This document shows, in pieces, positions 13,328-16,188 of a stretch of 64,000 nt of DNA. Every line of letters begins with the position of its first letter. Positions within the stretch are counted from its first letter, which is position 1. Below the pieces are notes generated by a model that was given only the letters and a program-made list of their open reading frames with translations, was not told where the DNA came from and ran no database searches. This stretch comes from an uncultured Rhizobiaceae bacterium. GTDB taxonomy: Bacteria > Pseudomonadota > Alphaproteobacteria > Rhizobiales > Rhizobiaceae. The translations under genes were made by a program, and so were the position numbers. The DNA is taken from contig CAXBCW010000009.1 of assembly GCA_963974325.1 (NCBI GenBank), positions 18 through 64,017 of the forward strand. Reading direction: 5' to 3'.

Positions 13328-13409
13328 AGCACGATATACTTATAAATTACCAACGTCGAAACGCTCCACCTCCCTCAAAGGGTGTTGATTTATAACAACT
13401 TTTTTTGAT

Positions 13410-13442
13410 CAGTCACTAAACTGTCACATCTCTGTCGTATAC
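13410..13442 (+). promoter_or_regulatory. Three tandem 11-bp repeats resembling Pho boxes (PhoB/OmpR-family site)
   Basis: CAGTCACTAAA / CTGTCACATCT / CTGTCGTATAC, compared with the PhoB half-site CTGTCAT-N4. Confidence 0.5.
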
Positions 13443-14103
13443 GTCACAGATATTCCGATGAAAGATTTCGGCTGAGGACAGGGAGCATTTTTGATCACAA
13501 ATTGAACTATTTGGCGTCTGCGTTTTACCCCAAGCGCTACCACCCAAATGTTTATGGCACACTCATCAGTATTTAACTCTATTGCAGGCCATTAAGATCT
13601 AAAGGAAGTGCTTTCCTACAGGTCATGTTTAATGCCAGTGACAGGCATTGTTAGAGCGTTTGTTATGGCGACCGTCACCAAATTTAAAATAACTCATAAA
13701 ACGGCGATAAGCGTGGTTATAGAATTCAGAAGACAACCCTTTTTAATTCAAAAAAATTGGACGTTGATGTAGCTATAATTTCGCAAATGGAAAACAAACT
13801 CACCACAACTTCTGCGGTACCGATTATATTATTTTTGGTGTTAAATTAATTCGATTTGTTACAAAAAACGAATATTTTTTTCTTATCGCCTTGAATTAGA
13901 AAAACCCACACGAATCACTACCAATGATTGCATAAAATCGCAAAATACTAAATAATTGCCGTTTGTTAAGATATTTTTTCTTTTATTTCTTATAAACTGC
14001 TTTAAAAATACGAGACTATTAGAAAATTAAATTTTAGGCGGCGACTGATTCGGCACTCGAAATCAGATCCACCTCTCAGGTACAGCGTGATTCGTATAAT
14101 TAT

Positions 14104-15729: not shown

Positions 15730-15840
15730 TAGCCAACACCTGGTGCAGATCATTTGTCTTCAATGAGACCACTTTAAGCCTGTTAGCTCAAAGATTTATT
15801 AGCATCTATTGCTATGCACTTTTAAAATTAGACCAGACAT

Positions 15841-15868
15841 GAAAAAGGCCACTCCCGAAGGAGCGGCC
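15841..15868 (-). terminator. Rho-independent terminator with C(UUCG)G loop
   Basis: Minus strand GGCCGCTCC-TTCG-GGAGTGGCC-TTTTT. Confidence 0.85.
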
Positions 15869-15946
15869 CGCATTCAAAGTCCCGGAGGGGTCTTACTGTT
15901 AGGTGACCTTAAAGCCACAACAACAAGTTCCGGTCCGTTGTTATTC

Positions 15947-16015
15947 TTATGAAGAATGCTCCACAAGATTACCAATAAACAAAGACCCAACCTGACCAAA
16001 TAAAATGCTCGACAT
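15947..16015 (-). CDS. Candidate small protein, 22 aa (MSSILFGQVGSLFIGNLVEHSS)
   Basis: Preceded by AAAGGAGGTGGTCCG-ATG, within its own promoter/terminator unit. Below the ORF-track cutoff. Confidence 0.5.
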   Translation of the reverse strand: MSSILFGQVGSLFIGNLVEHSS

Positions 16016-16051
16016 CGGACCACCTCCTTTCAATACGTTAAAGATAATCCG

Positions 16052-16080
16052 AGTATGGCGCAGAATTTTGATTCTGACAA
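16052..16080 (-). promoter_or_regulatory. Sigma70-type promoter for the small-ORF unit
   Basis: TTGTCA-N17-CATACT on the minus strand. Confidence 0.55.
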
Positions 16081-16188
16081 GTTTGGTCTGTGGAAACATT
16101 TAACACTGATCATTTCCGAAAATTGAACAGAGACAATTTTGCTGATATTATACGCCAATGTGATCTGGCATTTATGGCATCTAAAACC

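Follow-up and report, generated by a model that had tools for sequence, protein, structure and literature searches.

The minus strand of the 64,000-nt stretch analysed here (the window, to which all coordinates refer; contig CAXBCW010000009.1 of an uncultured Rhizobiaceae bacterium) carries, at about 16080-15841, a stand-alone transcription unit that is a new, divergent marine member of the described rre/CC2171 family and not a new kind of element. We consider it likely that this unit is an rre-type small mRNA of ~205 nt in a marine alphaproteobacterium of low GC content, transcribed from a promoter of its own and ending at its own terminator, and that it works by the 30S-engagement mechanism proposed below, with the RNA and its engagement of the ribosome, rather than any particular peptide, being what matters. 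The original prediction, made from the letters of the window, had described a promoter, a near-complete anti-16S Shine-Dalgarno sequence (SD), an ATG opening a small open reading frame (sORF) of 22 codons, hairpins and a C(UUCG)G terminator; all of these are present on the minus strand, although the described family to which they belong (the rre genes; Rfam CC2171) had not been recognized.

Small mRNAs of the rre type ("ribosome-regulated expression") were reported as rreB in Bradyrhizobiaceae and rreR in Rhodobacterales by Hahn et al. (2017, RNA Biol 14:1353; PMC5711450), together with analogues having 16-17 nt of complementarity to 16S rRNA in Caulobacterales, Rhizobiales, Rhodobacterales (rreR, 18 codons) and Rhodospirillales. 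In Bradyrhizobium japonicum, the rreB mRNA measures 165 nt and combines a 17-nt stretch perfectly complementary to the 16S 3' end with an sORF of 14 codons. This mRNA localizes to the P100, or ribosome, fraction and co-sediments with 30S subunits, its translation is weak because of the extended SD, and substitution of a stop for its start codon raises its half-life from 10 to 37 min (PMC5711450). Association with 30S, weak translation and start-codon-dependent turnover have been demonstrated for B. japonicum rreB only (PMC5711450), and our literature search found no follow-up on rreB or rreR beyond the 2017 paper.

The window unit resembles these RNAs in being a stand-alone transcript of 150-200 nt with its own promoter and terminator, in having the SD inside a 16-17-nt 16S complement that reaches the start codon and is followed by a short sORF (14, 18 or 22 codons), and in its alphaproteobacterial host; different clades do not share a genomic context. 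The gene set and order of the window (purL, bolA, grxD) presumably also fit an alphaproteobacterium. A count confirmed the match to the canonical 16S complement given in the original prediction (Table 1), and the exact 15-mer occurs a single time in the 64 kb, as compared with 0.00 occurrences expected from 100 shuffles. When an assumed, conserved alphaproteobacterial sequence is taken as the 16S tail, the complementarity over the SD comes to 16 predicted pairs, in line with the at least 16 nt found in rre RNAs. The single mismatch to the canonical complement is a G in place of an A; this base, and the G that follows the 15-mer, would form G·U wobbles with 16S, the first of which (GGTGGTCC) is shared with the rreB of Afipia broomeae (L102). 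Because the window sORF starts with ATG and not GTG, the last position of the 17-nt complement ("17c") is an A opposite a C and stays unpaired. With the same assumed tail, the SD:16S duplex is predicted at -32.1 kcal/mol, as compared with -35.5 kcal/mol for the canonical 17c region and -16.5 kcal/mol for a plain SD. The ATG stands at the end of the complementarity, as in rre mRNAs, and its 22 codons fall within their range of a few to ~25.

Scanning one genome per species with a 21-nt signature (GAAAGGAGGTGRTCCNRTGTC) yielded at least 120 loci, one per species and nearly all alphaproteobacterial; the orders and groups among the matches listed are Rhizobiales, Caulobacterales, Rhodobacterales, Sphingomonadales, Rhodospirillales/Acetobacteraceae and Hyphomonas, and the window's own species and its nearest genera are not among these matches. 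This one signature finds the window unit, the rreB of A. broomeae ATCC 49717 (a strain in a figure of PMC5711450 as an rreB example), a Bradyrhizobium sp. (L111) and a Dinoroseobacter sp. metagenome-assembled genome (MAG; L116) with an rreR-type 18-codon sORF. In every locus among the matches listed, an ATG or GTG located 7 nt after the GGAGG opens an sORF, of 14-27 codons in 116/120, and the ATG start of the window recurs in loci of Sphingomonadales, Mesorhizobium and Azospirillum. Both the length and the sequence of the sORF are typical of the clade, with no peptide similarity across clades: MSHGSA… (18 codons) in Sphingomonadales, MSRVILERGVGTVR… (18 codons) in Rhodobacterales, MSHC.(Q/S)PRS…W… (21-25 codons) in many Rhizobiales and Caulobacterales, MS..KRCHLAGIAR (14 codons) in Bradyrhizobiaceae and MSSDFVFQNVASADC… (23 codons) in Mesorhizobium. 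The window sORF likewise shows no peptide similarity to the others, and it differs from them further in lying in a low-GC genome.

The same RNAs are represented in Rfam by the Caulobacter sRNA CC2171 (RF01867), of which Landt et al. (2008) is reportedly the source. CC2171 has been validated by northern blot in Methylorubrum, without an assigned function (bioRxiv 10.1101/2022.01.24.477521). At gathering thresholds Rfam gave no match across the whole window; a permissive search returned one end-to-end match to the unit, RF01867, at 25.3 bits (E = 0.0038). The RF01867 consensus starts with cAAcaAucGAAAGGAGGUGAUCCAGUGUC, and GACAAUGG, the segment ahead of its terminator, pairs with CAUUGUC directly past the start codon, a layout also seen in the window; the entire middle domain differs, and Rfam classes CC2171 as a non-coding sRNA. 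Since two loci collected with the rre signature pass the RF01867 model (L006, from Methylobacterium, with 99 bits, and L091, an unclassified proteobacterial MAG whose sORF type is that of the Caulobacteraceae MAGs L034 and L070, with 94 bits), "CC2171 sRNA" and "rre mRNA" are two names denoting overlapping parts of a single superfamily. Forms from Sphingomonadales, Rhodobacterales and Mesorhizobium fall under the RF01867 cut-off, and the 2017 rre paper makes no mention of Rfam, CC2171 or Sphingomonadales (PMC5711450).

Homologues that keep the SD, the reading frame and the layout of hairpins and terminator, which the original prediction had proposed to look for, were found in two relatives. 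A metagenome scan with a subfamily-specific 23-mer returned 6 loci, of which L125 is the sole close relative, the others being other rre types; the second relative, X27, is syntenic with the window at ~93% identity. In L125, whose gene neighbourhood differs from that of the window, the leader, the SD and the first five codons are identical, and the sORF aligns without gaps (58/66 nt, 22 codons). Its terminator stem is retained with one compensatory and one one-sided change and a different loop, and its post-stop stretch is unalignable, yet forms a (different) hairpin there. X27 is identical to the window from 15957 to 16045; further downstream, its post-stop hairpin has G-C in place of A-U at pair 15941/15920, a compensatory change, and the reading frame is retained with the stop changed from TAA to TAG.

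Table 1. Features of the unit in window coordinates. L125 and X27 are the two relatives described in the text; P1 is the helix between the sORF and the 3' strand.
Feature	Position	Strand	Sequence	Remarks
-35 box	16080-16075	-	TTGTCA	Consensus scan; TTGCAA in the same alignment column of L125; unchanged in X27
-10 box	16057-16052	-	CATACT	17-nt spacer from the -35 box; CACACT in L125; hexamer unchanged in X27
Predicted transcription start (~16045) and single-stranded 5' leader	16045-16032	-	AUCUUUAACGUAUU	Start placed at the onset of conservation
SD 15-mer	16031-16017	-	GAAAGGAGGTGGTCC	Matches 13/14 nt of the canonical 16S 3'-end complement
Extended SD	16031-16016	-	GAAAGGAGGUGGUCCG	16 contiguous predicted pairs with the 16S 3' end (14 Watson-Crick, 2 G·U)
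sORF	16015-15947	-	MSSILFGQVGSLFIGNLVEHSS	ATG 16015-16013, 7 nt past GGAGG; 22 codons; stop TAA 15949-15947
Helix P1, 5' strand (codons 3-11)	16009-15984	-	GCAUUU...GGUC.GG..GGGUC	Duplex with 15893-15870
Stop-codon hairpin	15967-15946	-	CUUGUGGAG-CAUU-CUUCAUAAG	Spans the last sORF codons and the stop; RNA pairs 79-87/92-100
Post-stop hairpin	15944-15917	-	AUAACAAC/GUUGUUGU	Predicted fold; compensatory change in X27
C/U-rich 3' switch strand	15893-15870	-	AGACCCCUCCGGGACUUUGAAUGC	Alternative pairing with leader and SD or with the sORF start (P1)
Intrinsic terminator	15869-15841	-	GGGCCGCUCC-UUCG-GGAGUGGCCU + U-run	Stem-loop 15869-15846; 10 bp, 7 of them G-C

Taken alone, the promoter match is at chance level (it scores 9/12 in the consensus scan, in which 10 such scores were found as compared with 6.5 expected by chance); the comparison with relatives supports its being a promoter. 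In L125 the two hexamers occupy the matching columns, with the same 17-nt spacer, amid otherwise diverged sequence. X27 has six changes within the 20 nt upstream of 16045 (16046-16065), which spare the -10 hexamer and alter the positions flanking it (16058 and 16051). Across the family (119 loci among the matches listed), TTG is most frequent 47-50 nt upstream of the SD; that of the window stands at -49. Conservation sets in at 16042-16045 in X27, in L125 and in X26 (an RNA-type run), and the metatranscriptome contig X24 terminates at 16043; the first 8 nt of the RNA are predicted to be unpaired (P >= 0.99). The contig from X26 ("organism B"; 151 nt) matches the leader, SD and first 18 codons (15961-16045) at ~92% identity (F6T, Q8E) and switches to unrelated upstream sequence exactly at 16045, which supports the 5' boundary. 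At the 3' side, the hairpin after the stop and the terminator stand where originally described, with a spacing of ~50 nt and not ~80 nt between them; a short third hairpin is located between the post-stop hairpin and the C/U-rich strand. The whole 207-nt RNA has a predicted folding energy of -73 kcal/mol (z = -3.8 as compared with shuffles).

Beside these boundaries we noted a family feature directly 5' of the SD: an AACAA(C) box at -8 to -3 is the most conserved upstream element (1.3 bits at -7, in the same 119 loci). In this it is similar to ARN or CA-rich motifs, to which Hfq or S1 binds or which enhance translation, and the window, with UAACGUAUU at 16040-16032, retains it only in part.

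The unit stands alone, as was originally proposed: the gene upstream, on the same strand, encodes a DM13-domain protein, the response regulator gene downstream is convergent, the promoter position is conserved, a terminator is present, and contigs from a relative are confined to the unit. These contigs, ~150 nt long and of the X27 type, come from the seawater metatranscriptomes X24 and X25 and cover 15879-16043 only, one of them ending 2 nt from the predicted start; the transcript on which the original prediction had staked its case is thus detected in a relative. Their depths of 7 and 13 (X24 and X25, respectively) compare with 8.5 and 5 for grxD and 9 and 4 for rpsD contigs of the same relative, and the flanking DM13, response-regulator and kinase genes have a depth of 0. 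This is the pattern expected of a discrete, well-expressed small RNA in relatives. The public annotation of the corresponding Tara Oceans scaffold calls no gene at the unit. We ruled out a cis-acting leader of the downstream gene, the next gene being convergent. The 22-codon sORF holds, with the small correction that an in-frame ATG at 16099 also gives a mechanical ORF of 50 aa; we rejected this longer frame, as it starts upstream of the promoter, in a region that is unalignable in L125, and has no Pfam hit.

A unit with this layout might serve to encode a functional micropeptide of 22 aa, which could be membrane-active or act as a type I toxin, with the RNA features only tuning its expression. 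The start codon lies at the optimal distance from the SD, the frame and its 22-codon length are retained in L125 and X27 despite the change of the stop from TAA to TAG, sORF lengths are clade-typical, the window peptide is moderately hydrophobic, and rreB-egfp fusions are translated, albeit weakly (PMC5711450). The substitutions, however, speak against this reading. The sORFs of the window and L125 differ at eight nucleotides, every one of these differences being nonsynonymous (F6T, F13L, I14N, N16K, V18M, E19G, H20Q), and two of the replacements, F6T and I14N, turn hydrophobic into polar residues. For sORFs of the same length, pooled pN/pS is 1.24 in Sphingomonadales (25 unique sequences), 0.83 in Rhodobacterales (16) and 1.02 in Rhizobiales (15), and nucleotide variability in these three clades is equal over the three codon positions, with no third-position excess; the codon-level conservation that the original prediction had asked about is therefore lacking. 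By these crude population statistics, the peptide appears not to be under purifying selection and to evolve neutrally, so that the "conservation" of peptides within clades would be nucleotide conservation. Peptides show no similarity between clades, and the synthetic RreB and RreR peptides are unstructured, and overproduction had no phenotype (PMC5711450). We thus regard a micropeptide gene as unlikely, and the "highly translated small protein" of the original prediction is contradicted both by this neutral evolution and by rreB, whose extended SD makes for weak translation. Its "type I toxin-like mRNA" does not hold up either. A type I toxin-antitoxin system combines a conserved hydrophobic or toxic peptide with an overlapping antisense RNA, and the sequence lends support to neither: hydrophobic residues are replaced by polar ones, no conserved antisense promoter was found, and the only promoter-like match on the plus strand, at 15799-15828, sits in a stretch that is replaced in X27.

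Several of the changes in the sORF are compatible with RNA pairing and fall in the stop-codon hairpin. There, V18M converts a G·U into an A-U pair and E19G an A-U into a G·U pair; the two changes at H20 (H20Q in L125, the synonymous CAU>CAC in X27) both sit in the loop, and TAA>TAG in X27 turns U-A into U·G, a one-sided change that, like V18M and E19G, keeps the pair. Conserved across the family are the start codon, a frame that stays open over a length typical of the clade, and a stop, with TAA, TAG and TGA interchanging. Because these are kept while the type of stop switches, the comparison points to the act or extent of translation as what matters, and not the peptide sequence, as with leader peptides. 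Leader-peptide attenuators and translation-dependent switches such as trpL/rnTrpL likewise have a tiny ORF whose translation outweighs its peptide, alternative helices that share one strand, and an intrinsic terminator. The window unit differs from them in having no downstream gene on the same strand (the next is convergent) and no runs of regulatory codons, and the extended SD is unique to rre.

Those alternative helices were examined by comparing duplex energies with shuffles, as the shared 21-nt collecting motif would dominate any custom covariance-model score. In the 107 loci with a locatable terminator, an interrupted duplex, P1, joins the opening ~30 nt of the sORF to the ~25 nt directly 5' of the terminator; its predicted family median is -22.7 kcal/mol (z = -2.4 as compared with shuffles), z is below -1.5 in 73% of these loci, and a second test of the ORF against the 3' strand gave z = -2.8. 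The partner sequences differ by clade yet stay complementary (CAUUGUC/GACAAUG; CAUGGUUCAGC/GCUGACCAUG; GUGGGAUUA/UAAUCUCAC). In the window, P1 consists of GCAUUU/GAAUGC, GGUC/GACU, GG/CC and GGGUC/GACCC, with -22.1 kcal/mol and a z of -2.7 to -3.1. One of the family's forms is seen with particular regularity in Sphingomonadales (L013, L018, L027, L062, L117 and ~25 others), an order not listed in the 2017 rre paper (PMC5711450), in which a uniform rre form combines an ATG start, the 18 codons beginning MSHGSA and the CAUGGUUCAGC/GCUGACCAUG version of P1; the two of these loci that were scanned (L013, L009) score under the RF01867 cut-off.

In the window, X27 and L125, the 3' strand also complements the leader and SD, by CGUAUU/AAUGCG, AAA/UUU, GGAGG/CCUCC and GGUC/GACC. 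A 12-mer of this strand (AGACCCCUCCGG) is invariant in the three while its flanks vary, and L125 retains the AAUGCG as well. The duplex of SD and 3' strand, at -22.9 kcal/mol in the window (z = -4.2), is predicted to be nearly isoenergetic with the -22.1 kcal/mol of the ORF:3' strand duplex. The SD-masked form is the predicted ground state, the probability of being unpaired for the GGAGG core being 0.01-0.04 in all three RNAs, with which an RNAalifold consensus agrees. The 3' strand includes an internal mimic of the 16S tail, GACC-CCUCC at 15891-15884, and the A-to-G deviation of the window from the 16S complement (GGUGGUCC) would give a G-C pair with this mimic while still allowing a G·U pair with 16S. 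When 17 nt of the SD are held single-stranded in the calculation, the RNA adopts the P1 fold instead, which costs 6.3 kcal/mol. These predictions suggest that in the window subfamily the 3' strand is bistable and would act as a conformational switch driven by the 30S subunit. The SD of rreB differs in being masked by a 5' hairpin, and across the family the GAAA on the 5' side of the SD tends to remain single-stranded, in agreement with the "seed" idea of Hahn et al. (PMC5711450).

The CCUCC box in the 3' strand could instead serve a trans-acting base-pairing sRNA, in which a CCCCUCC box would target the SDs of other mRNAs, as in mmgR/αr8, and the sORF would be incidental or the RNA dual-function. 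Like mmgR/αr8 (RF00519, suhB) and other sRNAs with anti-SD motifs, the window RNA has a C/U-rich CCUCC box near its terminator, whose 12-mer is the invariant one; the P1 conformer is predicted to leave much of this box in an internal loop, and 15832-15897 bears a weak Rfam similarity to mmgR/suhB. That similarity, however, scores 19.5 bits (E = 0.25), as compared with a gathering cut-off of 41 bits, and the 5' two-thirds of the window RNA have no counterpart in mmgR/αr8. The box, moreover, complements the RNA's own SD, a pairing that accounts for it, and such a box is missing from most clades of the family. A trans-acting sRNA of this kind is accordingly hard to credit; a dual-function sRNA, among the guesses of the original prediction, is possible.

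The original prediction had also envisaged an RNA that sequesters 30S subunits through its extended SD. As far as engagement of 30S is concerned, this matches the homologue rreB, most of which is found with 30S subunits and in the ribosome fraction (PMC5711450). The further step, a sponge that titrates free 30S and lowers translation globally, could draw on the very stable predicted SD:16S duplex and on contig depths that suggest a fairly abundant RNA. Nevertheless, overexpression of 17c-rreB leaves growth unaffected, ribosomes far outnumber the RNA (PMC5711450), and the free RNA is predicted to keep the window SD masked, so that titration seems to us extremely improbable. None of these rivals is favoured over the rre-type reading.

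For the rre-type RNA we propose the following mechanism. The free RNA would be closed, its SD masked by the internal 16S-tail mimic and flanking pairs. A 30S subunit would then invade from the single-stranded 5' leader and form an unusually long and stable SD helix of 16 bp, upon which the freed 3' strand would re-pair with codons 3-11 and hold the 30S in a stable, poorly productive complex; initiation would rarely succeed there because P1 would clamp codons 3-11 inside the initiation footprint. An occasional translating ribosome would unwind the RNA and promote its decay. By analogy, this scheme fits the strong 30S binding, weak translation and start-codon-dependent turnover of rreB. We infer the switch and the order of events from the modelled structures, and a physiological role as a read-out of free 30S or of initiation capacity is a guess.

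Several points weigh against this reading. The host's own 16S 3' end lies outside the window, and the pairing was computed with the assumed tail. The RF01867 score of the window is well under the cut-off of that model (75 bits), with only the 5' motif, short remnants of P1 and the terminator aligned. The 5' and 3' ends of the window RNA were placed from conservation and assembled contigs, contig depth is a crude measure of expression, and the contigs may include DNA. The window subfamily is represented by three sequences only, in which the SD-masking helix is invariant and so provides no covariation either way, and the structural results come from thermodynamic prediction and sequence comparison. 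Masking of the SD by the 3' strand is, in addition, not family-wide: it was found in 25/94 loci (median z = -0.5), mainly in Rhodobacterales and the window subfamily. Finally, each clade keeps its sORF length and stop position, which leaves room for a role of the act or extent of translation or of a very degenerate peptide.

A broader generalization is doubtful, though conceivable: that rre/CC2171 RNAs are pan-alphaproteobacterial ribosome-responsive switches and not micropeptide genes, in which the 3' strand alternates between masking the SD and pairing with the sORF, senses free 30S or initiation capacity, and couples this to the RNA's own decay or to exposure of an anti-SD box. If it were true, the window copy would illustrate it particularly well, as its two pairings are predicted to have equal energies. 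The family, with its at least 120 species, is among the most widespread unannotated transcripts of alphaproteobacteria and has the longest natural SD-anti-SD complementarity known. To it the window adds a divergent low-GC marine member, transcribed in seawater communities (in relatives) and missed by gene callers and by the curated Rfam threshold. Neutral peptide evolution, the P1 helix and, in some clades, the internal anti-SD mimic argue together that selection acts on the RNA and on how it engages the 30S subunit, and against selection on the peptides. At the level of the family, the neutral evolution of the peptides, P1, the bistable 3' strand of some clades and the equivalence of CC2171 and rre are modestly new.

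Elsewhere in the window, the ~780 nt between bolA and a GAF histidine-kinase gene (13328-14103) contain no ORF of 60 aa or more and have a GC content of 29-34%, as compared with ~42% elsewhere; Rfam at gathering thresholds gave no match to this interval. Among the signature loci, four carry labels from outside the Alphaproteobacteria: L019 (a Terriglobales MAG), L084 (a Gemmatimonadota MAG chromosome, CP070812.1), L100 (a "Gammaproteobacteria" MAG) and L126 (a metagenome). L019 and L126 have in common a 17-codon sORF ending in SEVAEA, and the sole terminator found for them lies outside the 130-230-nt span of the structure profiles. Mis-binning of contigs, chance matching or the occurrence of rre-like units outside the class could each account for these four. 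In three further loci (L081 and L120, from Azospirillum MAGs, and L051, from an Acetobacteraceae MAG), the 21-nt signature precedes longer ORFs of 48-60 codons, which at their N-termini resemble signal or lipoprotein peptides (e.g., MSHGANPVVAAAFGLAALLTAGIASAEC...); in these loci, a genuine secreted small protein may be expressed from the rre 5' module.

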